From an uncultured Gemmatimonadales bacterium (GTDB taxonomy: Bacteria > Gemmatimonadota > Gemmatimonadetes > Gemmatimonadales > GWC2-71-9), in assembly GCA_963842945.1 (NCBI GenBank), contig CAWJIM010000002.1:64001-128000 (forward strand): a stretch of DNA of 64,000 nucleotides, read 5' to 3'. Positions within the stretch are counted from its first letter, which is position 1. Every line of letters starts with the position of its first letter. The notes under the pieces were generated by a model. The model saw only the letters and a program-made list of their open reading frames with translations, was not told the origin of the DNA and did no database searches. Below are positions 10,377 through 30,904 of the stretch, one piece after another. A program made the position numbers and the translations under genes.

Positions 10377-10394
10377 GCGAGCTCTGAAGGGCTG

Positions 10395-12695: not shown

Positions 12696-12902
12696 CTACA
12701 AAGCGATGCCGATCGGAAACAGGACGCAATAACCGAAGACCAGGATCACCGCAGCTGCGCTAGGGTGACCGGCTCGAAGTGTCAGATACCCGATTACCAG
12801 CACGAGAACCGCCAGCGCCAGGATGATGAGGTTTCGTGGGGCCAGCACGAAATGCCTGGGCGGAGCCTGCCCCGGACGGGTGGAAGGGCGAGGATTCGAC
12901 AT
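12696..12902 (-). CDS. Small two-TM membrane protein (DUF3098-like)
   Basis: 68 aa: MSNPRP...RNLIILALAVLVLVIGYLTL...AAAVILVFGYCVLFPIGIAL. Confidence 0.6.
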   Translation of the reverse strand: MSNPRPSTRPGQAPPRHFVLAPRNLIILALAVLVLVIGYLTLRAGHPSAAAVILVFGYCVLFPIGIAL

Positions 12903-12918
12903 ATTGAGGATGAGGCTA

Positions 12919-13815
12919 CTACGGTTCCCGGGTTCGGTCAAGTTCAGACGTGGCTGCGTCTTCCGGTGGAATCTCCCATCCTTCATCGAGCGCGGCCCGG
13001 CGCGGCAGGTCGGCAGCGCGACGGCGGCGCAGCAGGATCCAGAGGACCAGCGTGAGGACCCCCCACCCTCCCCCGGCCAGGATCCAGTTGGCCAGGCTGT
13101 ACCGCTGGCGAAGGCTTCGGCGCCATTCGACATCGAATTGAGGGACGGTTAGCCCGGTCGTGCGCTGCACAGCAATCTCGAAGTCCTGGCCCGCTCTAAG
13201 GAGGTCCAGCAGTGGAGTGAGCGAACGGGTGGGATTTCGGCGCGCGAGCTCGGTGACGGCCGAGGCCGCCAGGGCGTACGCGGCATCCGCCGTTGAGGCA
13301 GAGCCTCGAAGCGCCCCATCCAGACCGGGAAGATCGGGCACCGCTCCCCGGACCACGGCCAGGTTCAACTCGAGGCTACCCAGCCGCTCCCATTCGCCCG
13401 CTGCCCAGGCCGCATACCCCTCATCAAACCAGAGCGGGACTCTGACCCGTACAGCCTCATGAAGGGCCAGATGGGCCAGCTCGTGCCGCAAGGTTCGGTA
13501 GACGTCTCCCAGATCGGCCCGAAGGAGCACGATGCGCTCCCCCGGCAACGCCACCGCTGCGCCCCAGCCCGGCGCCCGGCCGGCAGAAAGAGAGTCGAGG
13601 CGTCGTGCATCGGGTACCACAATCAGCCGAAGGGGTCCGGGACTGCGGCGCCCCAGGCCGGGCCACTCAGTTGGCTCGGCCGCCCGGCGAGCGAGATCGG
13701 TAGCCAGCCGCAACTGCTCGGGCCAGGCCACAGCAGTAACGGGTCCAACCCGGATAGCTGTCGGTGGGTTCTGCGCGGGCGTGCCCGCCAGGATACTGAG
13801 TAGGACTAGGAGAGC
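12919..13815 (-). CDS. Gluzincin (peptidase MA-like) metalloprotease with C-terminal TM; start uncertain
   Basis: LRHELAH plus PLWFDEGYA; hydrophobic signal-like stretch LLVLLSILAG in frame upstream of the called ORF start (13731). Confidence 0.75.
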   Translation of the reverse strand, partial: ALLVLLSILAGTPAQNPPTAIRVGPVTAVAWPEQLRLATDLARRAAEPTEWPGLGRRSPGPLRLIVVPDARRLDSLSAGRAPGWGAAVALPGERIVLLRADLGDVYRTLRHELAHLALHEAVRVRVPLWFDEGYAAWAAGEWERLGSLELNLAVVRGAVPDLPGLDGALRGSASTADAAYALAASAVTELARRNPTRSLTPLLDLLRAGQDFEIAVQRTTGLTVPQFDVEWRRSLRQRYSLANWILAGGGWGVLTLVLWILLRRRRAADLPRRAALDEGWEIPPEDAATSELDRTREP

Positions 13816-14672
13816 GGACTGCGCGGGACTTCACCTCCGGCCGATGCAACCTCCAACATTTCCTGACACCGCTTGGCCCAGGGATTGAACTTGTTGGCTT
13901 TGTATCCGTCGGTCCAGACTCGAACGGCGCCTTCCCGCTCTCCGCCCAGCCAGAGAGCGCGACCCAGCTCGAAATAGGCCTCGATGAGGTTGGGGCCGAG
14001 CTTCAGAGTCTTGCGGAGAAAGGTCTGGGCATCTTCGTACATCTCCCGCTCCAGGTACACCAGACCGAGATAATAGTGAGCGTACAAGGTGGCCTTGCGG
14101 TCATTGTCCAGTCGAATGGCTTTGGACAGATGCTCGATGGCCTCCCCGAAGATCCCTTTCTTGAGACAAATATATCCGACGTTGATCCGGGCGAGCGCGT
14201 TGGCCGGTTCCTTCATCAGAACTTTGGAGAAGTTTCCCAGTGCCTCATCGTAGTTCTCGTTCAGCATCTGTGCCCAGCCCAGGAGCGATGTCGCGTGGAC
14301 CGCGCCGGGCGAAAGCGCCAGGGCCTTTTCCAGAGCCTGAATGGCACCACCATAATCGCCCAATGAGATCAGGCTCCAGCCCTTCTCGATATAGGTCGAG
14401 GCCCCCAGGTGGTCGGCGTGAACTGCGGGCCGCTCGCCGGTAAACTGTGGAGCCGCCGTGGCGTCGGCTCCGTTTGCCGTTTGCTTGTAGCGCTCGACCA
14501 GCTCCCGAATGCCTTCCTTGATCTGCCCCAGGTCCGTCAGGGCGCCGTCCACCCGCTTGAACAGAGAGATGATGTCCTTCTTCAGAGTATCCCGTTCACC
14601 ACCCGGTGCGTCCAGGCGGGCGGCCATTTCCGTCAGCTCCGCCTTGAAGGCGGTGAGCCAGGCTTGGGCCAT
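13806..14672 (-). CDS. Coiled-coil + TPR protein
   Basis: N-terminal coiled coil followed by about 5 TPRs (e.g. ARINVGYICLKKGIFGEAIEHLSKAIRLD). Confidence 0.85.
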   Translation of the reverse strand: MAQAWLTAFKAELTEMAARLDAPGGERDTLKKDIISLFKRVDGALTDLGQIKEGIRELVERYKQTANGADATAAPQFTGERPAVHADHLGASTYIEKGWSLISLGDYGGAIQALEKALALSPGAVHATSLLGWAQMLNENYDEALGNFSKVLMKEPANALARINVGYICLKKGIFGEAIEHLSKAIRLDNDRKATLYAHYYLGLVYLEREMYEDAQTFLRKTLKLGPNLIEAYFELGRALWLGGEREGAVRVWTDGYKANKFNPWAKRCQEMLEVASAGGEVPRSPLS

Positions 14673-15137
14673 CTACGCCGCCCCGAGCTCGCTCAGCGCC
14701 AACCGCTCGCTGGAGGAGAGCAGCTTGCGGGCGTTGAGCAGGATGATGGTGCGCTCCGGCCGGGAGATAATTCCGGAGATGTACGCCGCTGCCAGGCCAC
14801 TCACCACCGGGCCGGGCGGCGCGATGGCAGTACTGTCCACCCGCAGCACCTCGCGCACCTCATCTACCAGCACGGCCACCCGCTGCTTCTCCAGCTCCAG
14901 CACCATGACCCGCGTTTCCTCCCGTATCGGTGCATCCAGCTCGAAGCGTTTGCGCAAGTCAATTACGGGTACGGCGGTGTCGCCGTACGGCATCACGCCT
15001 TCGAGGAACTGGGGTGCCTTGGGGAGCGGAGACGGGGGTGAGTAGCGGAGAATACGCTCCACCTGCAGGATGTCGAAGGCGAATTCCTGGCGTCCCACCC
15101 TGAAGGTTACTACCTGCACATCGTCGCCAGTGTTCAT
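14673..15137 (-). CDS. cheW: Chemotaxis coupling protein CheW
   Basis: QVVTFRVGRQEFAFDILQVERI, LPKAPQFLEGV, PVIDLRKRF, LVDEVREV. Confidence 0.93.
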   Translation of the reverse strand: MNTGDDVQVVTFRVGRQEFAFDILQVERILRYSPPSPLPKAPQFLEGVMPYGDTAVPVIDLRKRFELDAPIREETRVMVLELEKQRVAVLVDEVREVLRVDSTAIAPPGPVVSGLAAAYISGIISRPERTIILLNARKLLSSSERLALSELGAA

Positions 15138-15565
15138 GATGCAGAGGCCTCCGTCAAACGTGAGCTCAGCGCGGGCAAGTCGAGCAGCGGCACCAATGTT
15201 TCCGCATGGCGCGCCACTCCCACAGCCCAGGGCAGCGTCTCCCCAGGGGGAACCGGCAGCGCCCGCTCCCGAACCAGCACCTCTGCCTCGTCCACCTCGA
15301 GACAGACGCGGCGGCCGGCAATGTTCACCACTACCCCGACATTTCCAGAGCCGACCGGAGTCGGCCGGCCTTCCAGCAGTGACGCGAGGTGAACCAGCGG
15401 CAGCATGCGGCCATGAAGCGCGACCAGGCCGCGGACGGCGGCCTCCCTGACCGGTACAGGATGGACCTCACTCAATTGGATTACCTCCACCACCTGCTCG
15501 ACCAGGAGGCCTACGCGGCGTTGGCCGACGCGAACCAGAAGAAATCCGCTTGTACGTGCACTCAT
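15134..15565 (-). CDS. cheW: CheW-like protein
   Basis: [36 protein letters not shown]. Confidence 0.85.
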
Positions 15566-16638
15566 TGATGCTTCAACCGGTACAGCTCGGTGGCAATGCG
15601 GTCCGCCATCTGGGCCATGGGCACGACGTACTGAGCTCCTCCGGCGTGGAACGCCGCCCCCGGCATACCATAGATGGTGGCGCTCTCCCGATCCTGAGCC
15701 ATTCCAGTTCCCCCGGCGTCACGAATCTGCCTCAGGCCTTCTGCTCCATCCCGACCGATTCCGGTCAGCACCACGCCGATCGCTCGTGGTCCAAACACCC
15801 GGGCCACGCTTCCGAAGGTGGGATCGGCGGCTGGACGGACGCCCCAGACCGGTGGCTCCTGATCCAGGGCGAGACAGAGCCCGCCGGCTGCTGGACTCAC
15901 CCGCATGTGAAAACCGCCCGGCGCCACATAGGCGGTGTCGGCCAGCAGCGGCATACGGTCTTCTGCTTCGACCACCCTGCAGCGACTCTGTGCGGCCAAC
16001 CGCTCGGCCAGGCTTCTGGTGAACTTGGGCGGCATATGCTGCACGATCAGAATGGCCGCTCCCTGGCCAACCGGCAGGTGAGGCACCAGGAGAGACAAGG
16101 CGCGGGGCCCCCCGGTCGATGCCGCGATGGCCACACACAGTCTTGCCTCACCAGGGGCTTCGACCGCCTGGCCGGCAGGCCAAGTCGGCGGTGGCGCCGC
16201 TGCCTGAGTCAATCGCTTGATGTCGGCGGTCCGGGCGGCGCGCAGGACCGTGATGAGCCGGTCGGCGAAGCGGGCGTTGGCGGCCACACCGCGATCGTCC
16301 TCTTTGACCACCAGATCGATGGCACCCAACTCGAGCGCGCGGATCGCAGCCGAGGCGCCCGGCCCGACGTGAGCGCTGACCACGACGATGGGCCGCGGTG
16401 ACTCCGCCATGATGTACCCGATCGCGCCGAGCCCGTCGACTTCCGGCATTTCCAGATCCATCAGCACGAGGTCTGGAGCGTGCGCCCGAACCTTCCGTAG
16501 CGCATCCATGCCATCGCGCGCGGTGGCCACGACCCGGAACTCGCCGGACCCCTCTACCACGTCGGTGAGAAGTCGCCGGAAGAATGGACTATCGTCCACC
16601 ACGAGGACCCGGCCGGGATCAGAGGTGCCGGACGCCAT
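15562..16638 (-). CDS. cheB: Protein-glutamate methylesterase CheB (REC + CheB)
   Basis: [39 protein letters not shown]. Confidence 0.96.
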
Positions 16639-17107
16639 GCGCCACCGTGCTCACCTCGACCAGGCCATCGGCCACCCGCAGCCGCACCGTTCGGCCGAAA
16701 TCGCCTCCAACAGCTTCCCCAACCAACGGCAGGTTGTGCGACATGAGTGCCTGGCGCGTCGCGGCCAGATTGCGCTCGCCCATCTGAATGGTGCCGGGCG
16801 GAGCCAGTGCCGCGAACATGCTGGCGCCTCCGGCCAACCGGGCCGTGATGCGCCGGGGCTGAGCTCCCTTGGCCGACATCAGGTGCAGCAGCCGGGGTAC
16901 AGCTGATTGAGGGAACCGGGCCGGATTGCCGTCATCCCGGGCCAACGCCGGCGAGGGGAGAAGCACGTGCGCCAATCCGCCCACCCTGGCCTCGGCGTCG
17001 TGCAGAACGATGGCGACGCAGCTCCCCAGTCCGACCGTCAGGAGCGTGTCCTCCCCTTGCCCGACGCCCAGATCCGCTACCCGGACCACCACCTCACGGC
17101 CGCTCAC
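16619..17107 (-). CDS. cheD: Chemoreceptor glutamine deamidase CheD
   Basis: [41 protein letters not shown] start overlaps the cheR stop. Confidence 0.94.
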
Positions 17108-17925
17108 GCTGCCCGCCGGTAGATTCGCTCGCGCGCGTCCAACAGTGTCAGCAGGTCTCGGGCTCGTCCCGACAGCGATTCCACCTTGCCCAGAACCAGG
17201 AACCCTCCGGGCGCCAGCGCCTCGGCAAAGTCGAGAAAGACCCGCTCCTGCATGGCTCGGCCGAAGTAGATGACCACATTCCGGCAGAAAATCAGCTGAT
17301 AACTGCGTCGAGGAGCCGGATCGATGCAAAGATCGGAGGCCCGAACCACCACCCTGCGACGGACCCGCTCGATCACCCGGTACTCGGAACCCCGCTCTTC
17401 GAAGTACCGGCGGGCCAGCGACGCCGGCACGTCAGCGAGAGCCTCGCGGGGATATCGAGCTTCGTGCGCCCGGGCCAGACACTGGGCGTCGACGTCGGTC
17501 GCGTCCACCGTCACCCGATCGAGGTGCTCTCCTCTGCCCTGCTGATCCAGGAATTCGGCCATCAGCGTGGCGAGGGTGTACGCTTCTTCCCCGGAGGAGC
17601 ACCCTGCACTCCATGCCCGCACCGCGGACCAAGTTCCGCTGAACAGTTCGGGGAGGACTCGATTGCGCACCAGATTCCAGGTTTCGGCGTTGCGATAAAA
17701 GCTGGTGACGTTGATCGTGATCGTGGCCTTGAGCCGGGCAGCTTCCGCGGAATCCCGCTCGAGCAGCTCCTGGTATTCCCCGTAGCTCTGTACCCCGCAC
17801 GCGCGCATGCGAACCGCTATGCGCCGCCGGAGACACTTGTCCTTGTAGCCATCGAGCGAGAGCCCGGTGTGGCGGGAGATCCTGCCGATCAGGTCGAGAA
17901 ATGCTTCCTCATCCGGCGGCGTCAT
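17104..17925 (-). CDS. cheR: Chemotaxis methyltransferase CheR
   Basis: TINVTSFYRN, WSAGCSSGEEAYT, ATDVD, IFCRNVVIYF, LGKVE. Confidence 0.96.
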   Translation of the reverse strand: MTPPDEEAFLDLIGRISRHTGLSLDGYKDKCLRRRIAVRMRACGVQSYGEYQELLERDSAEAARLKATITINVTSFYRNAETWNLVRNRVLPELFSGTWSAVRAWSAGCSSGEEAYTLATLMAEFLDQQGRGEHLDRVTVDATDVDAQCLARAHEARYPREALADVPASLARRYFEERGSEYRVIERVRRRVVVRASDLCIDPAPRRSYQLIFCRNVVIYFGRAMQERVFLDFAEALAPGGFLVLGKVESLSGRARDLLTLLDARERIYRRAA

Positions 17926-19539
17926 CGGGAGAGGTCCAGCATTTCCAGGTTGGCCCGAGCCAGCTGATGCCCCGGATTGAGCGCGGTGGCCTGGGCCCAG
18001 CTTTCCCGGGCTCGCGCCAGATCGCGCCGTTTGTAGGCGATGTTCCCCAGCTTGAAATAGAGGTCGTCTCCGAGCCCGGGGTTCAGCTTGGCCGCCCGTT
18101 CGTAGGCCTCGCCCGCTTCGTCGTAGCGTCCGGTGCGGTAGAGAATGTCGCCCAGGTTCTTGGAGACCTGCGGCAGTGCGGCATCTTCCGCCAGGGCGGA
18201 GCGAAGCATCGCCTCAGCCGCCTGCGTATCACCGCTGGCCTCCAGGAGCACGGCCAGATTGTTCTGGAGAACCGGATTGTTCGGGTAGGCCTCGACCCCC
18301 TGCCGGGCGATCCGCAAAGCGTTTTCCGTATCGTCCTGTCCGACCGCCGCCAGAGGCGGCCGCCCAATACCACAGCGCCGGCACCGGCTTCCCCTGCATC
18401 AGCTCGCAGGCCTGGGCCAGGCGCGACTGGGCCACCTTGTTGTCTCCCCGCTTCAGTGCCACGATGCTCCAGCCCAGCATGATCCGGGCGTCGTCCTTGG
18501 CTCGCCCGGCGGCGTCTCCGTAGGCCGCCTCGGCCTCATCCAACCGGCCCAGCTGCTCCAGCGCAAAGCCGAGATTATGCAGAGCAGCCGGCCGGGGAAC
18601 TCCGGCTTCGGCCGCCTGACGTAGCGCCAGAGCGGCCTCGTCCCAGCACGCCTGGCGGATGGCGATCAAACCCAGGAACAACGGGGCTCGGCTGTCGGCC
18701 GGACGCAGCTCGACCACCCGCCTGAACTCCCGCAAGGCCTCCTCCAGCATGCCTGCCTTGTAGAACGCAATCCCCAGGTTCCGGTGCTCGTCGACTCGGT
18801 TATCGTTGACCTTTGGAGGCGCCGCCTTGGAGGTTCCCGTCCGATGAGCAAACCCGGCGGTGATCAGACCGAACAGCGCCTTCCCGACCTCGAATTCCAC
18901 CAGCCCGGATGCATCGATCAATTGCCGCACATCGCGGGTCCCGTCGACCAACGGGAGCAGACGCCGCTGCTCGGCGGACAGCGTGGGTCCTGACTCTGCG
19001 ATGTGGTGCTGGTCGACCGAAAAGATCAGATCGAAAGAGGGGATCTTCTTCTCGATCAGGCTCCATTCATCGACCCGACGGGCCCCTTCCAACAGCAGGG
19101 CCTCGGGACTGATTCGAACCAGAAAGTCTTCCCGCTCCGGTTTCACGCCGGCCTCGAAGTTGAAAGTCCCCGAGGTCCAGGTGAACAGGTAGTACACCGC
19201 CTCTTCGATCTGGAGGCGTATGTAGTCCTCCAGCTCGGCCCGGGTCAGCATGCCGAGCCCTACCAGTATTTCTCCCAGCTTGTGCTGCCGGTCTTCGTCC
19301 TGAGCATCGATCGCCTGCTGCAGCTGCGCGGCACTGATGCGCCCCTTGCGAAGCAGGATATCGCCCAGCCGGTCCCGCCGATTGACGATGGAGGCGTAGA
19401 CGATCTGCCCCTCGTCGAGGTAGATCGTGCCGAAATTGTGCTGATCGGCGAGGGCCAGACAGCCGGTCCGCCGGCCGAGGAAGAGCAGCTGGATGACATC
19501 CGGGAGACTGGCCTCCTTGAGGCTGCCTTTGATGGCCAT
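17922..19539 (-). CDS. DUF4388 + MshEN-like motif + TPR protein; one frameshift near 18350
   Basis: [19 protein letters not shown]...W.SGTFNF...LLLEGARRVDE (DUF4388 pattern); TPRs continue in ORF 17922..18317. Confidence 0.85.
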
Positions 19540-21536
19540 CAGCGCCACTCCTCGATGATGCGCTCACCGACATCAGGCCAGTCCCAAACTATTTTCTCCC
19601 GGCTCTTGAGTCCGCCGGCGACTGCCACCACTCCGCTTGACCGGGTGGAGGACTTCCGGGGTGGTTTGGGTTGCGCTCCCTCGAGCACTTCTCGAGCCAA
19701 AGTCACCGTTGGCGGGCCACCCTGCGCCTCAGCGGCGTTGAGGATTCGCTGAAGCAGGCCGTGCACCGCTCTGATGGACTCTACCGGACGCGAGCCGACA
19801 TAAGCCGCCAACTCGGGATCGACTGTGCCCACCTTGGCCTGCAGCGAACGCTCGACCACCTGCTGGCGAACTTCCCGTTCCGGAGGCGGCAAATCCACCA
19901 CCAGCCCGCCCTCGAGCCGGGTTCGGAGGCGGCCCTCCACGGCCTTCATTTCCGCCAGTGGCACCGCGGACGTGAAGACCATCTGCCGGCCGGATTCGAT
20001 CAGGAAGTTGAACAGGACGAACAGCTCATCCTGGGTTCGATCCTTCTCGGCGACGAGATGGACATCGTCCAACAGAAAGGCCGCGGCACCGCGGTACCGT
20101 GCCCGCCACGCCGGGACGGCGTCGCGATCGATGGCCTCGATCAGCTCTCCGGTGAGCTCATGGGCGCTGAGGCAGGCCACCGGGCCCTTTAACCGCGTTG
20201 CCAAAGCATTCCCCAGAGCGTGCAGCAGGTGCGTCTTGCCCACCCCACTCGCGCCAACAATGACAAGAGGGTTGTAACGACGGGCTGGTTCCCCGGCGAT
20301 GGCCCGAGCGGCCTGCAGCGCCATGCGATTGCCAGGGCTCTCGAAGAGGTCGTCGAGCCGCCAGATCGGAAGCGGAGCCGGCGGGGGATGCGCGCCCTCG
20401 CGGGCACGTTGGGTAACCGCCTCCGCGCCCGCGATGTCCTCCGGATCGCGAAAGGCGCTGGAGCCGGCCAGCGATGGAGCCAGCTCCGAGGCCTCGGCGT
20501 GAAGCGCCTGGAGCCGGCGCACGTCGGACTCGAACTGGCGCAGCACCTCCTCCGGATCCGTGGTCATCTCCCGCTGCAGCAACGTGTCGAGCCGCGCGGT
20601 ACTGAATCCTTCTCCTTCCCATCGGAGAATTGCCGCTGCCACCTTGGTTCGCCACGAATCCACCTGCTGGGCCACCGTGGCGGAGACCTCCGACAGAAAA
20701 TCGCTGAACTCGTCGATACCCTCCGCCTCTGCTTCCTCCTCTGGCTTCTCTGGCTTCTCTGTCTTCTCGACGTCTCCCGCCAGCTTCCCGGTCTTCCGCG
20801 GTTGCTCCTCAACCCGTTCTGCTCCCCCGGCGAGCGCCCGAGCCTGAGCCGGCTTGAGGGGAGTATCACTCACCGCCTGAAAGGCGACCAGCCGATTGAG
20901 CGCGCCGAGCAACTCACGCACGTTGTCGATCACCAGCGATCCTACCGCCTCGAGCACACCCTCACCAAACCTGGCACGCCGTTCCTCCGCTTTCCGCCGG
21001 AGAATGGCCACCCGGGTCTCATAGTCAGGAGCCGCGATATCGATCACCAGGCCGCCGGCAAAGCGGCGGATGAGCCGCTCGTCGAGCGCCTCAATCTCGG
21101 CCGGCGGACGGTCGCTAGTGAGCACGATTTGACGATTGGTGGTCTGCAAGGCGTCACTGAGCCTGAGCAGCTCAGCCTGCATCTCCCGGCGGTGGGTCAG
21201 GAACTGCACATCGTCGACCAGGAGCAGATCGACGTCACTGAACCGGCGGCGGTAGGCCTCACCCTGCCCTGCCGCCACGGCCGCATGGAAGGACTCAACG
21301 AACTCGTCCAGTGTGAGGTATTCGACCGTCAGCCTGGGGTTGATCGCGCGGGCAGCATGCCCGAGGCCCATCAAGAGATGGGTCTTGCCCAGCCCGGGAC
21401 GGGCATAAATAAAGAGCGGGTTGTACACCGTGCCCGGAGATTCCGCGACTGCCTTGGCGGCGGTGAATGCCAAGCGATTGGCCGCACCCACGACCAGCGT
21501 GTCGAAGCGGTAGAGCGGGTTGAGCGTAGCGGTCAC
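19539..21536 (-). CDS. DnaA/Hda-family protein with two tandem DnaA-type AAA+ modules and no domain I or IV
   Basis: Module 1: [59 protein letters not shown]. Module 2: [41 protein letters not shown]. Confidence 0.9.
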
Positions 21537-22135: not shown

Positions 22136-22138
22136 TCG

Positions 22139-22600
22139 CTACCGTCCAAAGAGTTCTTTGAGGCTCGTGTCCAGCTCACGCTCGAAGTTTTCCGGCAACG
22201 GCTGGTTCTCCGCCGGCTCCCGCGGGGCTGCTTGAACCAGTTCCTCTACCATCTGGTCGAAAAAGAGCTGCACCAGTCCCACCGACGTCTCCGATCCGAA
22301 CACCACCAGACCAATCCACCGTCCCCGCGGCGTGCCGAAGGCGGAGAGCATGCAGCTCTGGCGGTTTCCCCCATGCACCAAAGCAGCAAACCGGGACGCT
22401 CCCATCAATCGAGCAAGCTCTTCGGTCGAAGCCACGATGGCGGCTCCCAGCGCTGCCGCGGTCATCACCTCCACCGACCGGGAGAACCCGTGCTGGGCCA
22501 CCACCTGCCCCGAGGTGGTCATCAGCAGGATCAGCCGGGCGGAGGATTCGGTGATGAAGGTCTGCAGGGGCGCCGCCACCCAGGGCTCGAGCGCGCGCAT
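22139..22600 (-). CDS. Roadblock/LC7 protein, MglB-like
   Basis: Roadblock fold pattern ending in VVFGSETSVGLVQL and an amphipathic C-terminal helix (FERELDTSLKELFGR); immediately upstream of mglA. Confidence 0.85.
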   Translation of the reverse strand: MRALEPWVAAPLQTFITESSARLILLMTTSGQVVAQHGFSRSVEVMTAAALGAAIVASTEELARLMGASRFAALVHGGNRQSCMLSAFGTPRGRWIGLVVFGSETSVGLVQLFFDQMVEELVQAAPREPAENQPLPENFERELDTSLKELFGR

Positions 22601-22947
22601 CAGGCCAGGCGACCCACCGCATCCAGCATCTGAACCCGGGCGAGTCCCAGGTTTGCATCGGTCGCCGCAACCGCCACCAGCACCAAATCGTTCCGGCCCG
22701 GTGCCGCCAGAACCGAGCCGTTGTTGCCCCGCAAGTGCACGAAGGTCGGCGCCGGCATGCCGGCCTGCTGCGTGGCGCGATCCAGCCGCTGGACCAGACT
22801 GGCTGCCAGAGCGGCAATCGCCCGGCCGTCGATGCCGTCCATCAGCCTCTCGGCCACCACGAGCCCGTCGGTGCCCGAGATGAGCAGCGAGCCCTTTACT
22901 CCGGGCACCTGAGTGACCCGCTCCAGGGTGACTTGGGCATCACTCAT
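22600..22947 (-). CDS. Roadblock/LC7 domain protein
   Basis: VPGVKGSLLISGTDGLVV...AIAALAASL...ANLGLAR. Confidence 0.88.
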   Translation of the reverse strand: MSDAQVTLERVTQVPGVKGSLLISGTDGLVVAERLMDGIDGRAIAALAASLVQRLDRATQQAGMPAPTFVHLRGNNGSVLAAPGRNDLVLVAVAATDANLGLARVQMLDAVGRLA

Positions 22948-23792
22948 GTGTGACTCTCCAGCCAGGCTCGGGCCTCGCGGCCGGCGCGCTCAGCGATCAG
23001 CCCGAGCCGCGCCATCGGTAGAGAGGGATCTCGCACCGCGAGCAGCATCGTGTCCGGCGTGGGTGCCACCAGAAACAGGTTTCCTTCGGGCGACTCCACC
23101 GCGATGGCCTGCCATCCGCCTAGACCGAGCAAGCGGCTCGTCCGATTGGCCTCCTTGGACACTCCGGCCAGCTCAGCAGCCACTCGATCGCCTACATCTT
23201 CGTTGCTCGGACTGAACAGAGTTCCATTCAACCGCAGGCCCTTGCTATCCACCAACATGATGCCGTGATCGCCCCGCCCATTGGCTTCGCTGGTGCCATT
23301 CACGGCGTGAGACACGGGGGTGGGCGGAGCCTCGACCGAGGCGGCCTTGGGTCCGGCCGCTTTTGACGAAGCAGGCCCACTGGCCGGAGCCGCACCGGTT
23401 CCCTTGACCCGCTCAATTGCCTGACCGATAGTGACATCGTCGGGGTCGATCTCGGCGGCGCGGCGGAGATGCTCTAGAGCCGCGGGAATGTCGCCAGCGC
23501 GGAAGTACAGGAAGGCGATGCCCTTCAGGGCGCCGATTCGCATTGGGTCAAACCGCAGCGCTTCGGCCCAGGCATCGAAAGCGCCCGCAAGATCGCCCTG
23601 ATCCCCCAGAATCCTGCCGAGCAGATCGTGAGCGTCAGCCAGGGCGGGATATCGGCTGAGGCCGCCCCGCGTCACCTTGTAGGCGGCGTCGAGCTGCCCT
23701 CGGCGGCGCAGCGCTTCACCCAAATCCAGAAAAGCCAGGCTCGCCGGCTCGTCCGCCAGTCGGGCGGTCAGGGTCTTGATGTCGTCACTCAC
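22944..23792 (-). CDS. TPR + C-terminal Roadblock/LC7 fusion protein
   Basis: N-terminal TPRs, Ala/Pro linker, then IMLVDSKGL...VAAELAGVSKEA...IAVESPEGNL. Confidence 0.8.
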   Translation of the reverse strand: MSDDIKTLTARLADEPASLAFLDLGEALRRRGQLDAAYKVTRGGLSRYPALADAHDLLGRILGDQGDLAGAFDAWAEALRFDPMRIGALKGIAFLYFRAGDIPAALEHLRRAAEIDPDDVTIGQAIERVKGTGAAPASGPASSKAAGPKAASVEAPPTPVSHAVNGTSEANGRGDHGIMLVDSKGLRLNGTLFSPSNEDVGDRVAAELAGVSKEANRTSRLLGLGGWQAIAVESPEGNLFLVAPTPDTMLLAVRDPSLPMARLGLIAERAGREARAWLESHT

Positions 23793-24822
23793 GATAGCTC
23801 TCCAGCTCTTCTGCCAGGATTTCCGCTGCTTGTCTCAAGCGCTCAACCTCGGGCGCGAGCGCCTCTTCCGCAGGCGTCCGCGTGCCCAGGCGGGACCAGC
23901 TCTTCCAGGTCTCCGCTGCGCCACGAAAACGTCCGAGGGCCGCCTGACACAGACCCATCAGGCGTCGCGCCTCCGGCATCAGCGGATCCGCCCGAAGAAC
24001 CTCCTGGACCGCCTGGGCAGCCTTTTCGAATTGTCCCTTGGCCAATGCTTCACGCACGGGGAGAAGCGGCGTGTTGTGGTCCTTGCCGTTTTGCCCCGCT
24101 GATCCGGCATCCAGTACTACCACTCCTGCTTCAGCCAGGGTGTAGATGGTGCGGGCCACATCGAACTCGGACTTGCCCAAGAGGTCGGCCAGCGTTTGGA
24201 GGTCCCGCAAGCCGTCGACCGCCGCCAGCACTTCCCATTGGAACGGAAGCAGATCCAGCTTGCCCTTTGCCGCTGAATCCGGTGGTGGCAGCTTGGGCAC
24301 GACCCGCAGGTGAGGCAGCTTGTCTTCCATCCGGGACCACTCGTCCGAGCGCCGGGCGGATTCCATCAGCAGCCCTTCGGTCGGGATCCGGAGTGGGGCC
24401 TCGACCAACGCCTCCGATTCGGCCGATTCCTCGAAGCGGAAGTGTCCCTCGGTCCAGCCCAGCAGGTCGAGGATCGTTTCCTCGATCTGAGCCTTCAATT
24501 GTCGGTCGAGCTCCCGGCGGTTGATCGCGCCATTCGCCACCAGGATGTCCCCCAGACGGCGGGTATCTCCCTTCTCCTGCTGGACGAGTGCCCGATCCAG
24601 ATCCTTTGCCGAGATCTTGCCGAGGCGCACCAGCCGAGTCCCGAAGCGCTGCGGGTTCTTTCCCATGCTGGCTGCGACAACGCCGCCCCGGTCGAACGTG
24701 ACCGATGCCGCGGTCTGGCGCAGCTCGGAGGTGACGCGCAAGACCCCGTTCTTCCGGCCCAAATCGAGCAGCTGAAAGACGTCCTGGATATGGAATTCCT
24801 TCAGCGGACCTTCGAGCGCCAT
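23785..24822 (-). CDS. DUF4388 + MshEN-like motif + TPR protein
   Basis: MALEGPLKEFHIQDVFQLL, WTEGHFRF, LLMESARRSDEW; paralog of 17922..19539. Confidence 0.85.
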   Translation of the reverse strand: MALEGPLKEFHIQDVFQLLDLGRKNGVLRVTSELRQTAASVTFDRGGVVAASMGKNPQRFGTRLVRLGKISAKDLDRALVQQEKGDTRRLGDILVANGAINRRELDRQLKAQIEETILDLLGWTEGHFRFEESAESEALVEAPLRIPTEGLLMESARRSDEWSRMEDKLPHLRVVPKLPPPDSAAKGKLDLLPFQWEVLAAVDGLRDLQTLADLLGKSEFDVARTIYTLAEAGVVVLDAGSAGQNGKDHNTPLLPVREALAKGQFEKAAQAVQEVLRADPLMPEARRLMGLCQAALGRFRGAAETWKSWSRLGTRTPAEEALAPEVERLRQAAEILAEELESYRE

Positions 24823-24825
24823 GTC

Positions 24826-27594
24826 TCAGCTTGCCCCGGCAAAGATGTGCTGGAGGTCGCGGGCAGATCGGGCCCGGCTCCGGGCCTCGGTGGCGAAAGG
24901 TCCATCCGGGTCCAGCTCGATTACCCGCTCCCATACTTGAACCGCCTGGTCGAACTGACGTTGGCGGGCAAAGCCGGTACCCTGGTGGTACAGCGCTGCC
25001 GGGTGGTCAGGATCGAAACGGAGCACCCGCGCGAAGGCCTCGAGGGCCTGGACCGTTCGCCCATCCTCTAGCAAGGCGTGGCCCAGCGCCGTCAGCGCCT
25101 CCAGCTCATAAGGATCGGCTTCCAGGACCTGGACCAACACTGGAATGGCGGCCTGGGCCGATTCCGTCCGGCGAATGAGGTCGGCCAGCGGGAGTGCGGC
25201 CGGGGCGTAGGTGGGCAGCAGGTCGAGCGCCCGCTCGTAGGCGGCCCGGGCGGAGGTCCAGTTATGCTGTTCCTCCTCCAGCCCGCCCAGCTCGCACCAG
25301 ACTCGAACCAGAGAAGGATCCAGTTGAAGCGCCGATTGGAAGGCGGTGAGCGCACCGGTCCTATCACCCAGTCGGGCCGAGGCTTGGGCCTGGAGATGAA
25401 AGAGGTCGGCTTGACCGGGCGCGATCGACTGCGCCTTCCGAACTGTCTCGAGCGCACCGGCGGCATCGCCGACGGCAAGTCTCACCCGGGCCCTGGTTCC
25501 CAGAACAGCCGGATCGGCCGGGGCTCGTGACGCGAGCTCATCAGCCAGGGGAGCGGCCTCGGCGCCGCGACCCAGCGACAGTAGCGCCCTGATTTCTCCG
25601 AGCAGCGCCCCGGTGTGCGCTTTAGCAAGAATCCGCGCCTCGCGGTAGCGCTCCAGCGCCTCGCCATAAAGGCCACGGCGAGCGAAGATGTCGCCCAGAA
25701 GCACCGTGGTAGGCGCGGTAGGGGCACCCCGGGCCATGGCACGATTGAGCTCGCCCGAGGCCTGGTCGAGCAAACCCCTGGCGATGAGATCACGGGCTAC
25801 GTTCAGCGATTCTTCGGCGGGCCCGGCCCGGGGAGTTGGGGTGGTGGCCGGGGCGAGCTCCTCGAACAACCGGTCCAGCACCGGGGACTCGAAGCTGAAT
25901 TCCCCGGCCAGCTCTTCGCCACTCACATCGGCCACCAGCTCGGGTGCGATGGCTATAGTCGGATCTTCGTACTGGAGATCGATGGTCAGCGCAAACTTCT
26001 GCGGGACATAGAGCGGCTCGAGCTCGAGCGCACGCTTGGTCTCCCGCAACGCACCATCGAAGTCGCCCAGCTGACTCAGCACAAAGCTCAGGTTGTAGTG
26101 CGCTGGGGCGAAGTCGCTGTCCAGATCCACCGCCCGCCCAAAGGCGTTGCGGGCGTCCTCGAACCGTTTCATCTCCACCAGCACCAGTCCCACACCGTTC
26201 CAACCGATGGCACTGGCCGGCTGCTCCGCCAGCGCACGCTGGTACTCCTCCAGCGCGGACTTGTACTGCCGCTGCTGAAAGAGCAGCAGAGCCAGGTTGA
26301 GCCGCGCGGTGAGCAGCGGGTGGTCACCAGTGAGTGCTTTGCGGAACGCGCTGACGGCTTTGTCGTTCCCAGTCTCACTGGACCGAATGACGCCTAGATT
26401 GTTCCAGGCCAGCTGATAAGCGGCATCGATGGCGACGGCCTTTTCATAGGAGGCGATGGCCTCCTTCCGTCGGCCCGACTGGTGCAGGCAGACGCCGCGC
26501 TCGTTCCAGAGCTTGGGCGAATCGGCGTGTTCCTTCACGAGGTCGTCGTAGAGCTTCAGCGCCGCGGTGAGGTCGCGCCGCAGAATGTGAACCTCGGCCA
26601 TGGCCTGGAGGTTGAGCCGGCGGTCTTCCCCGGCGTCGAGCGCGAGCTGGTACTCTCGCAATGAATCGTCGTGGTAGCCCTGCTGTCGAAGGGCCAGACC
26701 CAGGTTGTAGTGCGCCAGGAGAGAGCCGGGAACGGAAAGCGGGCCAGCCGGGCGGCCGGGCAGCGGGGCAGATTGCGCCGGGGTCGATTGCGCAGTTTCG
26801 CCCGAACCAGGGTGTGCACGCTGGCTGCGTCTCGAGCCCGACTCTTCCTCACTGCCCCGCCGCCCCACCGCCCCGCTGCCGAGCGCCAGATTCGCCTGCG
26901 CCCGCCCGAGCATGGGGTTCAGCTCGAGAGCCCGCTTGGTTGCCGCGCGAGCGGCCTCGGGCTGACCCAGCTCGCCGTACACGAAGGCGAGCAGATAGTG
27001 CGCTTCGGCGTAGTCCGGATTGCGAGCTACCGCCTCTTTCAGTGAGACCAGCGCCAGTTCGGTCAGGCCCCGATTGTAGAGCACCTCGCCCCGATGAAAC
27101 CGGGCCACCGGATTCTCCGGCTCCTGGTCACAGGCTCGGGCCAGCCAGTCACTCGCTGCGTCGAGCCGGCCTCGCGCCTTTTCCGCCAGTCCGAGCTGGA
27201 GCATGGCGGGGACGTCGTCGGGGTGATTCGCCAGAAGTTGCTGGAACTCGATGATGGCGTCTTCATGGCGGCCCAGCATGGCATAGGCTCGGCCCAATTC
27301 CCAGCGCGATTCGCGAGCCGTGGGGGCGCGTTGGACCCGCTGTTTCAGCTCTCCGATCTTGCGATCGTAGTGCCCGCTCTCCCGATAGGCGATCTCCAGG
27401 TTGGTCTGCGCCACCTGCATTTTGGGATCGAGCTCCAGGGCGCGCGCGAACTCTGCGATCGCTTCCTCGATCAGGCCTTTCTGGTAATACAGGACACCGA
27501 GGTTGTTGTGGGCGCCGGCATCGGAGGGATCGATCCGGGAGGCGAAGGATCGAAGCACGGTGAGATCGCGCTCCGAGAGCGCGGGAGCCGGCAT
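24826..27594 (-). CDS. Large multi-TPR protein (922 aa)
   Basis: Many canonical TPRs (AHNNLGVLYYQKGLIEEAIAEFARALELDP and similar) with an acidic central spacer. Confidence 0.9.
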   Translation of the reverse strand: MPAPALSERDLTVLRSFASRIDPSDAGAHNNLGVLYYQKGLIEEAIAEFARALELDPKMQVAQTNLEIAYRESGHYDRKIGELKQRVQRAPTARESRWELGRAYAMLGRHEDAIIEFQQLLANHPDDVPAMLQLGLAEKARGRLDAASDWLARACDQEPENPVARFHRGEVLYNRGLTELALVSLKEAVARNPDYAEAHYLLAFVYGELGQPEAARAATKRALELNPMLGRAQANLALGSGAVGRRGSEEESGSRRSQRAHPGSGETAQSTPAQSAPLPGRPAGPLSVPGSLLAHYNLGLALRQQGYHDDSLREYQLALDAGEDRRLNLQAMAEVHILRRDLTAALKLYDDLVKEHADSPKLWNERGVCLHQSGRRKEAIASYEKAVAIDAAYQLAWNNLGVIRSSETGNDKAVSAFRKALTGDHPLLTARLNLALLLFQQRQYKSALEEYQRALAEQPASAIGWNGVGLVLVEMKRFEDARNAFGRAVDLDSDFAPAHYNLSFVLSQLGDFDGALRETKRALELEPLYVPQKFALTIDLQYEDPTIAIAPELVADVSGEELAGEFSFESPVLDRLFEELAPATTPTPRAGPAEESLNVARDLIARGLLDQASGELNRAMARGAPTAPTTVLLGDIFARRGLYGEALERYREARILAKAHTGALLGEIRALLSLGRGAEAAPLADELASRAPADPAVLGTRARVRLAVGDAAGALETVRKAQSIAPGQADLFHLQAQASARLGDRTGALTAFQSALQLDPSLVRVWCELGGLEEEQHNWTSARAAYERALDLLPTYAPAALPLADLIRRTESAQAAIPVLVQVLEADPYELEALTALGHALLEDGRTVQALEAFARVLRFDPDHPAALYHQGTGFARQRQFDQAVQVWERVIELDPDGPFATEARSRARSARDLQHIFAGAS

Positions 27595-27598
27595 GGCG

Positions 27599-28216
27599 CT
27601 ATGGCAGGCGAATGGCGTCGAAAATGGCCCGCAGCGACGACATATCGGGCAGCAGCAGGAAATGGCCCCCCAGCGTGTCCGCGGCTCCCTCCACTTTGAA
27701 GGTGGTCTCTACGCAAAAGGCGTAGTCCCGCTCATGCCCGAAATTGAGCTGCGCCGTGGTGAGAACCGCTCCACTTAGATCGATGACGAGGCTGGGTACT
27801 GACGGGATCAGCATCATGCCCATGAAATCGCTCAGCGCATTCAGATAGGCGCTGGCGAGGATGTTTCCCGTTTCCTTGAGTCCGGATTGCTCCATCTCGC
27901 CCAGCTCCTTGGTGGTGCCCACGGGCCGACGAAACAGGAAGTCACACACGGTGTAGGCGGACTTCTCGGGAAAGAGCACCAACGCCCGGCCGGTCAGGTC
28001 GCCCATCATATGCATGAGCACCGCGGCAACCACCGCGTCGGCCGCGCCGACCAGGTCACACGCTTCTTCCAGCGGGCGCACAAACACGCGTGGCACGGTG
28101 ATCATGATGGTGCGGTTGGTCATGCCGGAGAGCGCGGTGGCAGCGTGGCCGGCGCCGATATTGGCCACCTCGCGAATGGCGTCGAGCTGTGACTCCTTCA
28201 GGTCACGGACTTCCAT
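27599..28216 (-). CDS. cheC: CheY-P phosphatase CheC
   Basis: Two active-site motifs, DAIREVANIGAGHAATALS and SGLKETGNILASAY, plus PSVP. Confidence 0.94.
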   Translation of the reverse strand: MEVRDLKESQLDAIREVANIGAGHAATALSGMTNRTIMITVPRVFVRPLEEACDLVGAADAVVAAVLMHMMGDLTGRALVLFPEKSAYTVCDFLFRRPVGTTKELGEMEQSGLKETGNILASAYLNALSDFMGMMLIPSVPSLVIDLSGAVLTTAQLNFGHERDYAFCVETTFKVEGAADTLGGHFLLLPDMSSLRAIFDAIRLP

Positions 28217-28225
28217 GCGGGCCTC

Positions 28226-30088
28226 CTAGAGGAGCGCCGCTGCGTCGAGGATCAACGCAGGCGCCCCATCGGCGAGAATAGTCGCGCCGCCCACGAACGA
28301 CGGGAGCCCCCGGGGGGCGTCGAACGGCTCGACCACGATGTCTTGTTGCCCTACCAGAGCATCGACTACGAGCGCGGCGCGGCGCTCGCCCACTTCCAGG
28401 ATCACCGTAGGCCGGCGGTTCGACCTAGACCCCGCCCGGGCCGCGATCAGGTCACGCAAGTGAACCGTCGGTATCACCCGGTCCCGTACCACCAATGCCT
28501 CGCGATCGCGCAGCGCCGTCACCATCGCACGGTCGAAGTCCACCGTCTCGGCGACATAGGCCAGCGGCACGGCGTACCGTTCGCCACCGGCCTCGGTCAG
28601 CAATGCGCGGACAATGGCAAGGGTGAGCGGAACGCGGATCAGAAACGTGGTCCCCCGCCCCAGCTCGCTGCGCACCTCGAGGGTTCCGCCGAGCGCACGG
28701 ACCCGGCTCATCGCCACGTCCACACCCACGCCACGACCGGAAACACCACTCACCTGCTGAGCGGTGCTGAATCCCGGTCGCGCCAGCACCCGAACCAGGA
28801 GATCGTCGGGCAGCGTATCCGTCTCGGGCGCCAGCCCCTCGCGTCGAGCCTTGGCCAGGACCTTGTCCCGGTCGATGCCGCGGCCGTCATCCGTGACCCT
28901 GATCGCCACCGTGTTCCGCTCCCGTGAGGCCGAGACCAGAATGCGACCTTCGGCCAGCTTACCGGAGGCCAGCCGCTCGGCGGGAGACTCGAGCCCGTGA
29001 TCCGCCGCGTTCCGGATCAGGTGCACCAGAGGCTCACCGATCTCGTCCAGGATCGACCGGTCCAGCTCGATTTCGTCGCCTTCCGTATCGAAGCGGATCT
29101 GCTTGCCCAGATCCCGCGAAAGGTCACGCACCAGGCGAGGAAACCGCTCGAATACCTCACCTACCGGGGTCATGCGGGAGGCGAGCACCTCGCCCTGCAT
29201 ACTGGAAACGAGGCGGTTGACCCTCTCGCTCACTTCCATGAGGACGGGATCGCGGGACTCCGTGGCTAGTGCACCGAGGCGGTTCTTCGCCACGACCAGC
29301 TCGCCGACCTGCTTCATCAGCAGATCGAGCCGGCGCAGATCCACCCGAATTTGCCGGTTTGCTCCCGGCTGCGAATCCACAGTGGCCGCAACCGCCTCGA
29401 CGATCTCCATGGTCTCCACGTCGCCGACAGCACGCAGCGCGGCGATGATCTCGGGATCGGACGACCGGGTCTGCAGCCGGAAGGAGAAGCGGCCGTCGAA
29501 ATCATCCCGCTCGAATTCGACTAGTGGGGGACGGATCGTGCTCACCGCGCCCAAGGTCTCGGCCCGCCGGAGCACCAGGGCTGCTCGAGCCCCCCGCATG
29601 ACCGCACCAGGACGAATGGTCACCTGAATCGGTCGAGAGCGAGGAGCATCGGTAATGCGCCGGGCCGGAGGTGAAGTCTCCCCTGCCACTGCCGGAGGGT
29701 TGGCGGGGCGATCTGCTTCGGCTGCACGATCCAGCTCAACCAGTAGCGCCGCATCCGGGGCTTCTTCTGCCCCTGCGGCGGCGGCTTCCACGGACTTCCC
29801 CAGCGTGTCAATCGCGCGGAAGAGCAATTGGAAGACTGCCGAGCTGCCCTGCAGGCGGCCCCCCCGAAGCCCATCGAGCAGATTCTCGATCCCATGAGCC
29901 AGCTGGGCCACGGCCGAGTAGCCCATAGTCGCAGCCATGCCCTTGATCGTGTGGATCGCCCGGAAGAGCCGATCCACCGGCTCGAGTGCGGACGGCGCCT
30001 TTTCCCACTCGAGCAAAGAGCTGTTGCAGGCTTTGAGATGCTCGCGGCTTTCCGCAACAAACAGGCTGGCGTACTTGGAGAGGTCCAT
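28226..30088 (-). CDS. cheA: Chemotaxis histidine kinase CheA
   Basis: Hpt LFRAIHTIKG, IRVDLRRLD, HLIRNAADHG, DDGRG, GFST, SGRGVG, P5 domain. Confidence 0.97.
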   Translation of the reverse strand: MDLSKYASLFVAESREHLKACNSSLLEWEKAPSALEPVDRLFRAIHTIKGMAATMGYSAVAQLAHGIENLLDGLRGGRLQGSSAVFQLLFRAIDTLGKSVEAAAAGAEEAPDAALLVELDRAAEADRPANPPAVAGETSPPARRITDAPRSRPIQVTIRPGAVMRGARAALVLRRAETLGAVSTIRPPLVEFERDDFDGRFSFRLQTRSSDPEIIAALRAVGDVETMEIVEAVAATVDSQPGANRQIRVDLRRLDLLMKQVGELVVAKNRLGALATESRDPVLMEVSERVNRLVSSMQGEVLASRMTPVGEVFERFPRLVRDLSRDLGKQIRFDTEGDEIELDRSILDEIGEPLVHLIRNAADHGLESPAERLASGKLAEGRILVSASRERNTVAIRVTDDGRGIDRDKVLAKARREGLAPETDTLPDDLLVRVLARPGFSTAQQVSGVSGRGVGVDVAMSRVRALGGTLEVRSELGRGTTFLIRVPLTLAIVRALLTEAGGERYAVPLAYVAETVDFDRAMVTALRDREALVVRDRVIPTVHLRDLIAARAGSRSNRRPTVILEVGERRAALVVDALVGQQDIVVEPFDAPRGLPSFVGGATILADGAPALILDAAALL

Positions 30089-30091
30089 GGA

Positions 30092-30454
30092 TTACGCCAG
30101 GACGCGCTGTACCGCCTCGAGGACACGGGAGGGCTGGAAGGGCTTCACCACGAAATCCTTGGCACCGGCCTGGATCGCTTCGACGACGAGGGCCTGCTGC
30201 CCCATGGCGCTGCACATCAGGATCTTGGCCTCGGGGTCTGACTTGCAGATCTCCCGCACCGCCTCGATGCCGCCCATGTCGGGCATCACGATGTCCATGG
30301 TGACGAGATCGGGCTTGAGCTCGCGATACTTCGCGACCGCCTGTAACCCGGACTCGGCCTCGCCCACTACCTCGAAGCCCGCCTGGCTCAGGATGTCGCT
30401 GATCATCGTGCGCATGAAGATGGCGTCGTCGCAGACGAGCACGGTGTGGTTCAC
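30092..30454 (-). CDS. cheY: CheY response regulator (Bacillus/Thermotoga/archaeal type)
   Basis: DDAIFMR, PDLVTMDIVMP, CSAMGQQ, AKDFVVKPF. Confidence 0.95.
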   Translation of the reverse strand: MNHTVLVCDDAIFMRTMISDILSQAGFEVVGEAESGLQAVAKYRELKPDLVTMDIVMPDMGGIEAVREICKSDPEAKILMCSAMGQQALVVEAIQAGAKDFVVKPFQPSRVLEAVQRVLA

Positions 30455-30466
30455 GGAACTCCTCCT

Positions 30467-30904
30467 TTAGCTTCCGATGATCGGCGCGAATACGGCATCA
30501 ACATCGAGCAGAATGAAGTGCCGGTTCGACTCCAGTCCTACCGCCTTGACCAACCGGGGATCGACCCCAGGGAGCTCCTGCCGCTCCACCACGGAGGCAG
30601 CGGGCACTTCGAGGAAATCCAGCACCTGGCCGACCCCAAGCCCGTAAGCCTTCCCTCTGACTTCGAGCACGACAATGGCGCCCTCGTCGGACAGTCGCCG
30701 CTCCTGTTGCAGGAGCATGTGCCCGTCGAGAACTGTCAGCAGGCTTCCTCGAACGTTGACCAGCCCTTCGACTGCGTCCGCCACCCCAGGAATGCGGGTG
30801 GCTGGGAGCCGGGGGAGGATCTCACGCACGATCCCTGCCGGGGCCGCGCAGACAATCTCACCGATTCGAAAAATGACGGCGTGAAGCGCGGAAGAGTTAG
30901 CCAT
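30467..30904 (-). CDS. cheW: CheW
   Basis: VREILP..TRIPG..VEGLVNVRGSLLTVLD; ATG overlaps the rluD stop. Confidence 0.9.
   Translation of the reverse strand: MANSSALHAVIFRIGEIVCAAPAGIVREILPRLPATRIPGVADAVEGLVNVRGSLLTVLDGHMLLQQERRLSDEGAIVVLEVRGKAYGLGVGQVLDFLEVPAASVVERQELPGVDPRLVKAVGLESNRHFILLDVDAVFAPIIGS

Follow-up and report, generated by a model that had tools for sequence, protein, structure and literature searches.

The Dif system and the dif-like clusters of Geobacter bring together 44H receptors (described for the dif-like clusters in PMC2577667), CheW, CheY, CheA and CheC, with CheD and CheR added in Geobacter, and the accessible text of two sources states that they regulate, or may regulate, the matrix (PMC2577667, PMC4671073). 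In Myxococcus xanthus, a polarity module of MglA, MglB, MglC and RomR/X/Y is driven by Frz, a chemosensory system. SgmX is an effector of MglA for pili, according to the available part of the source (PMC12288465). Cyanobacterial Tax/Pil systems have regulators of the PatA type, in which a PATAN domain is joined to a receiver, and the accessible text on Synechocystis reports that PATAN binds PilB1 and PilC (10.1101/2021.06.11.447907). Here we analyze a gene system that recalls all of them. It lies in a window of 64,000 nucleotides (contig CAWJIM010000002.1, positions 64,001 to 128,000, of assembly GCA_963842945.1, an uncultured Gemmatimonadales bacterium), and consists of 18 genes, all on the minus strand, running from position 30904 down to 13806 of the window. 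In this string, chemosensory (Che) genes enclose a block coding for MglA, Roadblock proteins, two PATAN (DUF4388) proteins and a DnaA-derived protein. The system is real, conserved and, apparently, undescribed as a whole, and is composed of known families plus one odd DnaA-derived adaptor.

A preliminary description of this DNA had proposed the system as a candidate undescribed one, and we found no publication on the whole architecture in the literature searched, subscription journals being outside its coverage. Only the PATAN-MglA-PATAN centre is in print, as a row of a supplementary table: the available part of PMC4316618 places PATAN genes near Group 1 mglA, and its supplement gives for Gemmatimonas aurantiaca GAU_1409 the string 'PATAN>MglA>-PATAN>', with no Che or DnaA entry. 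The accessible part of a further source (10.64898/2026.05.11.724246) has no mention of Gemmatimonads. That row and the journals beyond the search are what could favor an architecture already characterized elsewhere; with no paper on it found, and with the synteny present in dozens of independent assemblies, we consider it very improbable that the system is already known or is an artefact of annotation or assembly.

The list of open reading frames (ORFs) and the Pfam/NCBIfam profile searches agree with the co-oriented genes, order and family labels given in the preliminary description: CheW, a receiver (CheY), CheA, CheC, a tetratricopeptide repeat (TPR) protein of 922 residues (TPR922), DUF4388 with TPR (PATAN protein A), TPR with Roadblock, Roadblock, MglB-like, a small GTPase (MglA), a protein with two Bac_DnaA stretches, DUF4388 with TPR (hereafter, the hub), CheR, CheD, CheB, CheW, CheW and a TPR protein of 288 residues (TPR288). 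The genes are indeed mostly overlapping, since 10 of the 17 junctions overlap, one abuts and six have gaps of 3-12 bases. It is also right that a non-Che block sits inside the Che operon. However, the terminal gene, TPR288 (13806..14672; TPR array with a helical N-terminus, nearest Atlas clusters from Gemmatimonadota), is assigned to the non-Che block because it persists where che genes are gone.

Among the described systems, Dif and not Frz is the nearer precedent, because the Che part is of the F1 type, there are three distant 44H receptors and there is no flagellum. The locus shares with Dif and the Geobacter clusters the 44H receptors, separate CheW, CheY, CheA and CheC, the CheD and CheR of Geobacter, a non-flagellar setting with type IV pili and, presumably, the gene order cheW-cheY-cheA-cheC. 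It differs from Dif in lacking a receptor gene within the cluster, in having three CheW and a CheB, in giving no EpsW above the cut-off, and in the MglA/Roadblock/PATAN/DnaA-derived block that it encloses. With the polarity module of M. xanthus it has in common an MglA of Group 1 in which every G motif is present, an MglB-like protein, additional Roadblock proteins, one long TPR protein and a chemosensory system, but here MglA is a second copy and no GltG-type gene passes the cut-off; furthermore, Frz is encoded separately and its kinase is a CheA-receiver fusion, whereas here a plain F1 CheA lies in the same string. As with the PatA-type regulators, PATAN stands beside a chemosensory system and the pilus motor is a plausible target; here, however, PATAN is fused to MshEN-type motifs and TPRs and has no receiver, CheY is separate, and MglA and the DnaA-derived adaptor are added. 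Finally, the latter shares with DnaA domain III (8BV3/8BTG) and with Hda the fold, the nucleotide motifs and the initiator-specific helices, but it lacks domains I, II and IV, has zero to two AAA+ copies, and carries a helical domain of 110 residues, a motif that we call M1 and a conserved tail, with the base-capture residues changed in AAA+ 1.

A search with the DnaA-like protein gave 78 loci, in Gemmatimonadales or Gemmatimonadota in all but one case. From 40 relatives, 20 were chosen for long contigs and family spread, and the gene order was kept in 20/20 loci, belonging to three families, over the span covered, with single genes missing in some. The arrangement is therefore not due to chance, and the conservation in related genomes proposed at the outset is confirmed by this synteny comparison; the interleaved Che/non-Che order is kept in six families. 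In a sample of 150 genomes of the phylum, the hub gene was found in 73/74, 28/31 and 2/2 genomes of the three families of the order (103/107 in all), in 4/4 genomes of three further families of the class, in 1/16, 0/7 and 0/1 of three others, and in 0/15 genomes outside the class. The block was already present in the ancestor of the order, and earlier still, but is not phylum-wide in this sample.

To these relatives, 38 extra stretches picked to include deviant genomes were added, eight of which were dropped (unrelated che loci, fragments, blank), and the resulting matrix of 50 loci was reduced to 43 after removing seven with contig ends or many indels. The loci were picked via block genes other than the hub and, being kin, are not independent trials. 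The hub was present in all 43 full-span loci, followed by MglA (40), TPR922 (39), TPR288 (39), the DnaA-like ATPase (38), CheY (38), CheA (37), MglB (34) and CheR (31), and 18 of the loci hold every gene, the fast-evolving second CheW aside. The hub is thus the one constant member of the block, and TPR288, retained in che-less and Mgl-less variants alike, travels with it. Considering all this, there is in our opinion about an even chance that the block is a class-specific signal-integration module, in which inputs from Che, MglA and cyclic di-GMP (c-di-GMP) come together at the hub and type IV pili are controlled in this way.

Several variant loci weigh against such an integration. Three of them (L143-L145) have zero che genes and a complete non-Che string, and two (L139-L140) retain che genes, hub and TPR288 with no Mgl gene. 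Because the Che genes and the Mgl genes have each been lost while the other half stays, the two halves are separable and their coupling is not obligate, so that a Che-to-GTPase switch of an obligate kind is not supported. These loci, together with at least nine flagellated genomes whose sole CheA-dimer match lies inside this block, would fit two functionally separate modules that share one transcript by history: an F1 chemotaxis operon, ancestrally flagellar and now with another target, and an inserted MglA/PATAN block. CheY is a very conservative F1 protein, and the region belongs to a long overlapping housekeeping run (ileS-lspA-rluD) that could hold neighbors together, as such an explanation would ask. 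We nevertheless regard it as unlikely, given that the interleaved order is kept in six families, that hub and adaptor motifs stay in che-only strings, and that many other flagellated relatives have a second CheA near flagellar genes. Further reduction was also observed: one locus (L146) retains MglA, hub, CheR and TPR288, another (L151) has the DnaA-like gene and the hub alone between rluD and the peptidase gene, and in genome G143 only the hub-adaptor pair is left at the block's locus. G074, G112 and G118 have lost the whole block from this very locus, and stubs are what is left in two of them. The block in its entirety is dispensable, and its clean loss does not support an essential role in division.

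The hub (17922..19548, about 540 residues) is made of a PATAN (DUF4388) domain, an MshEN insert, a winged-helix-like segment and a TPR array, and PATAN protein A (23785..24822; PF14332) has a similar MshEN-type insert, identified by motif alignment and by NF053729 (43.3 bits for a cut-off of 38), followed by short TPR. Tandem MshEN-type motifs (RLGxxLxxxGxI) are over the NF053729 cut-off in both PATAN proteins, 5HTL is matched with E 3e-7, and the genome contains 13 GGDEF matches; from the MshEN motifs we infer that the hub could bind c-di-GMP. In this assembly a frameshift near 18350 splits the hub gene into 18229-19548 and 17922-18317. This is probably an assembly indel, because the gene is one ORF in 89 of the 92 related loci with both halves and because the nearby ileS is also in pieces. 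No public read was found over the site (best word share of public runs 0.15). The neighboring ileS and the purine nucleoside phosphorylase gene (window 32791-36705) are broken over several frames, which suggests indel errors in the assembly. Four genomes (G120:C212, G075:C293, G026:C7 and G117:C12) carry, outside the block, a third paralogue of PATAN type (51-61% to the N-terminal part of the hub).

The DnaA-derived protein (19539..21536) comprises AAA+ 1 (residues 5-228), M1 and the helical domain (274-382), AAA+ 2 (390-620) and a tail motif (646-665). In the structure model (mean pLDDT 84), the helical domain is flanked by two AAA+ modules; the links are flexible, and the terminus forms a short helix. 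Of the fold matches, the best is domain III of Bacillus subtilis DnaA (TM-score 0.94 to 8bv3_A), and the fold searches returned only DnaA/p97-type AAA+ and generic TPR matches; for DnaA domains I and IV, neither a Pfam match nor a counterpart in the model was found, and the protein has no DNA-binding domain. AAA+ 1 is 42-44% identical to DnaA domain III and conserves Walker A and B, sensor I, the arginine finger and sensor II (30-32 of 32 rows), while the nucleotide motifs of AAA+ 2 are looser, with the sensor I Asp in 13 rows. The ATPase core is variable: AAA+ 2 is missing in L148, L150 and L171, both AAA+ domains are missing in six loci, and two AAA+ plus the tail occur in 33 of the top 150 cluster representatives, one AAA+ plus the tail in 19. 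The tail motif (EKxVWxWP..R..EE) is in every full-length member.

In all six ATPase-less loci a short ORF of 60-100 residues occupies the place of the gene, abuts the start of the hub and contains only M1 and the tail. M1 scores 15.6-23.7 bits in these mini-ORFs (best unrelated ORF, 10.7), and the tail scores 21-29 bits in five and 10.4 in the sixth, compared to 8.7 for the best unrelated match in the 40,392 ORFs of its own genome. When the one-AAA+ orthologue of G079 was folded together with its full-length hub, the complex scored 0.87, compared to 0.00 for the best of three controls, with a mark that is reached by 116/157 solved complexes and 2/215 mismatched pairs; the runs agree in at least 76% of contacts and the partner pLDDT is at least 73. 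The tail motif is predicted to bind the TPR groove of the hub (tail residues 358-385 against hub TPR residues 265-497), with M1 outside this interface. The retention of M1 and tail in the mini-ORFs supports the tail-groove contact independently, as judged from the sequences. A decay of the groove upon loss of the ATPase gene was ruled out, since groove residues N327, N431 and N465 are retained in 6/6, 6/6 and 5/6 ATPase-less loci, even though five of the six have lost the MshEN insert and the last TPRs. The AAA+ component, which the preliminary description could not match to any characterized Mgl system, is indeed an odd DnaA-derived protein, but its ATPase core is optional and two short motifs are what is constant; on these models, a peptide adaptor that may or may not carry ATPase domains is the better reading.

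The likeness to DnaA raises the question of replication. The base-capture residues of DnaA are N187, I190, I193, R202 and E228, according to the available text of PMC10721633. AAA+ 2 retains the equivalents of I190, R202 and E228 in 28-30 of the 30 rows having this domain, with N187 changed; in AAA+ 1, E replaces N187 in 26/32 rows and H replaces I190 in 20/32. The ATPase might then co-assemble with DnaA or bind single-stranded DNA, tying polarity and c-di-GMP to replication initiation or budding, and the domain III identity and nucleotide motifs of AAA+ 1, the position of the block just upstream of rsmH-ftsL-ftsI, and the budding of most cultured members (accessible part of PMC8779627) would be in line with this. 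We find it improbable, however, because of the missing domains I and IV, the changed residues of AAA+ 1, the loci without AAA+ 2 or without either AAA+ domain, the clean loss of the block in three genomes, and the presence of a canonical dnaA elsewhere in the genome. A broader proposal seems rather doubtful: an undescribed polarity switch, with a flagellum-less F1 pathway, a second MglA and c-di-GMP acting on one PATAN-TPR scaffold held by the tail of the adaptor, where the DnaA core would form an ATP-dependent clamp or filament, possibly touching DnaA, and couple pole identity to the budding cell cycle.

Some observations concern the relatives of the helical domain. A word-based protein search with it found only close relatives. 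Tandem repeats of 24 large proteins match it (16-45 bits for single repeats), as do those of five more proteins that end in DnaA domain III, some with zinc ribbons (proteins P0121-P0137, P0147 and P0216). The named relatives belong to Thermoplasmata and other archaea, some with a DUF835 or KaiC/RAD55 label. The AAA+ of the repeat-plus-DnaA proteins groups with canonical DnaA, apart from the DnaA-derived family of the block, and a likeness of their N-terminus to PATAN was not significant (hhalign E 0.094).

Regarding the Che part, 44H receptors are among the features of the F1 class as it is defined. CheY (30092..30454) has as its best solved match 1TMY (E 1.3e-50, about 70% identical), a CheY of the F1 (Thermotoga/Bacillus) type, with the DD, D54, S and K motifs in 32/32 rows. 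CheA (28226..30088) has the domains Hpt-P2-dimer-HATPase-CheW (P1-P2-P3-P4-P5) and no fused receiver, scores 413 bits with CheA_Halo compared to 320 with PRK10547, and is the only CheA-dimer match in the genome; its alignment has 34 rows, two of them from unrelated loci. CheC (27599..28216) matches PF04509 twice and retains both E-x2-N sites. After the non-Che genes come CheR (17104..17925; PF01739, PF03705), CheD (16619..17107; PF03975, catalytic Cys in 23/23) and CheB with a receiver (15562..16638; PRK00742, 350 bits for a cut-off of 293, Ser/His/Asp retained). The first CheW (30467..30904; PF01584, E 1.7e-21) overlaps the rluD stop by 8 bases, the second (15134..15565; PF01584) is fast-evolving and was detected in 20/43 loci, and the third (14673..15137) matches PF01584 with E 1.4e-34. 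In the alignments of relatives, the catalytic motifs of CheY, CheA, CheC, CheB, CheD, CheR and MglA are intact and conserved.

No receptor gene is in the string; the three receptors (methyl-accepting chemotaxis proteins) of the genome are all on other contigs. The three have 154-156 residues from tip to C-terminus, that is, 22 heptads (44H), with Q-containing methylation sites (QQ/QE). Eight of the 74 genomes of the family are without CheA, and all seven receptor-less genomes are among those eight; the scattered receptors therefore belong to this Che system, and 44H receptors come and go together with the che genes. The Che part is, by its sequence features, an F1-type chemosensory system, as had been proposed from its type of CheY and from CheC and CheD, and as the 1TMY-like CheY, the P2-bearing, receiver-less CheA and the three 44H receptors now corroborate. 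The receptor at G000:C19:317175-320326 follows a gene for a periplasmic binding-protein-like product, whose end overlaps the open frame of the receptor.

The flagellar or archaellar output expected of the F1 class was not encountered in this genome (87% complete), where no FliG, flagellin or FliM/N was found. None of 11 genomes of the genus gave FliG, and in the family a FliG match is missing from 51 of 66 genomes with CheA, in agreement with the non-flagellar output anticipated in the preliminary description. The flagellated genomes (at least nine) whose sole CheA-dimer match is in the block argue, on the other hand, against a role that is purely non-flagellar. In a Dif-like alternative, the output would be exopolysaccharide or matrix and adhesion, with pili as upstream sensors, a phosphate sink formed by CheY/CheC and c-di-GMP entering through the hub. 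The 44H receptors and the CheW, CheY, CheA and CheC shared with Dif and the Geobacter clusters, whose matrix role was cited above, would favor it, as would the c-di-GMP motifs, suited to a sessile switch, and one receptor whose two membrane helices bracket a loop of about 19 residues. Nevertheless, many homologues of this receptor have long N-termini, EpsW gave nothing over the cut-off (best 75.8 bits for 200), and the MglA, MglB and Roadblock genes would be left unexplained. For these reasons this alternative appears quite unlikely to us.

The MglA already named in the preliminary description (21533..22135) is a true Group 1 member by its motifs: it matches the M. xanthus MglA structure 5ymx with E 1.4e-72, and GxxxxGKT, R53, TVPGQ/Q82 and NKxD occur in 30-33 of 33 rows (TVPGQ and R53 in 33/33). 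The adjacent MglB-like protein (22139..22600, 153 residues) is diverged, below the NF052242 cut-off, but has the Roadblock fold (E 7e-10 to M. xanthus MglB, 6izw_B); upstream are a single-domain Roadblock protein (22600..22947; PF03259, E 1.4e-12) and a TPR-Roadblock fusion (22944..23792; PF03259 plus TPR). The MglA of the block is a second copy, the other mglB-mglA pair being located after dnaX and recR on the same contig (G000:C2:302424-306669), and a second MglA match is present in most genomes of the order. Given this second pair, the receptors on other contigs and the overlap of the first gene with rluD, the system cannot be called self-contained, as the preliminary description did. The recR-linked MglA is longer (228 residues). 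In L155, L174, L175 and L183, MglA is retained and the block's MglB and Roadblock genes are lost; MglA may rely there on the recR-linked MglB.

TPR922 (24826..27594; TPR families) is a candidate effector of MglA, SgmX-like by analogy only. L154 and L176 (genus g20) have lost cheR/D/B and show strong decay of MglA, TPR922 and the first PATAN gene, with MglB, the DnaA-like gene and the hub intact. Over 37 loci the scores of MglA and TPR922 correlate at 0.93, compared to 0.53 for MglA and LspA, a merely suggestive difference confounded by kinship. Two genes elsewhere in the genome could be further polarity genes: one for a TPR protein, upstream of efp-accB-accC (G000:C24:53309-54892), that is similar to the TPR-Roadblock fusion at its N-terminus, and a lone Roadblock gene (G000:C1:176715-177119).

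As for the possible outputs, the genome has pilB-pilT-pilC and pilM. The gliding suggested in the preliminary description is not supported: GltG had no match over the cut-off, and the one obtained was through the N-terminal part only and far below it. Two more PilB-like ATPases (G000:C19:583951-586005 and C21:225785-227833) have an MshEN-family domain and a C-terminal receiver and are both about 6 kb from an FHA-type gene; they could be phospho-regulated pilus or secretion motors and candidate CheA substrates.

The observed gene content, intact motifs, conservation and deletion pattern are the ground for the mechanism that we propose for an integration module. Its core would be the PATAN-MshEN-TPR hub and the DnaA-derived adaptor, with the tail motif of the latter in the TPR groove, as predicted. 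The hub would take c-di-GMP through its MshEN motifs, and its PATAN domain could contact the pilus motor PilB/PilC, as cyanobacterial PATAN domains do; it is by this analogy that we infer the motor as output. MglA-GTP, switched by MglB and the Roadblock proteins, would place the complex at the pole via TPR922 and the first PATAN protein, and CheY-P (or CheA) would adjust the hub. The AAA+ domains, which are optional, may add ATP-dependent oligomerization or remodelling. In this way Che, MglA and c-di-GMP would be separable inputs, forming no linear chain, that determine where and when pili act in twitching or attachment.

Besides the variant loci and the flagellated genomes already mentioned, other results count against this integration. 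The links of the hub to CheY, MglA, c-di-GMP and pili are putative, and no result connects the hub with the pilus, or CheY or CheA with any protein outside the Che set. pilM is in 143/151 genomes and stays where the block is lost; it is nearly universal, so that pili are not singled out by its co-occurrence. For the complex, orthologues of another family and custom alignments were used, and peptide-in-TPR complexes (e.g., OGT) are well represented among solved structures, so that likeness to them may inflate the score. Conservation of the whole interface is barely higher than that of the rest of the TPR region (0.65 and 0.60), L150 retains just 2 of the 15 top contact residues, and the mini-ORFs reflect one or two origins, a quick tree needing two and one being possible. 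In addition, contigs from two RNA libraries of one study are spread in pieces over the block, which proves neither transcription nor a single transcript.

Upstream of the string are ileS, lspA and rluD. Downstream (window 7197-13731), the flank contains a peptidase-MA gene, tRNA-Val, a TPR gene of 640 residues, tRNA-Asp and rsmH-ftsL-ftsI, and this flank, from peptidase-MA to ftsI, is retained across the order. A scan of positions 12400-32300 was uninformative, with four promoter-like signals for 1.8 expected and five terminator-like signals for 9.8 expected.

Even in Myxococcus, with its scattered genes, the path from a chemosensory output to a small-GTPase polarity switch is understood only in part. 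In the present locus the candidate parts are gathered in one string, natural deletions indicate one hub, and for one interaction there is a definite structural prediction. If the proposed module is true, the AAA+ core of DnaA would have been reused outside replication, and sensing would be connected to surface motility by an unstudied wiring, via a scaffold predicted to bind a second messenger. It would also provide a first mechanistic handle on the control of motility and attachment in an abundant, little-studied soil lineage that has cultured members.

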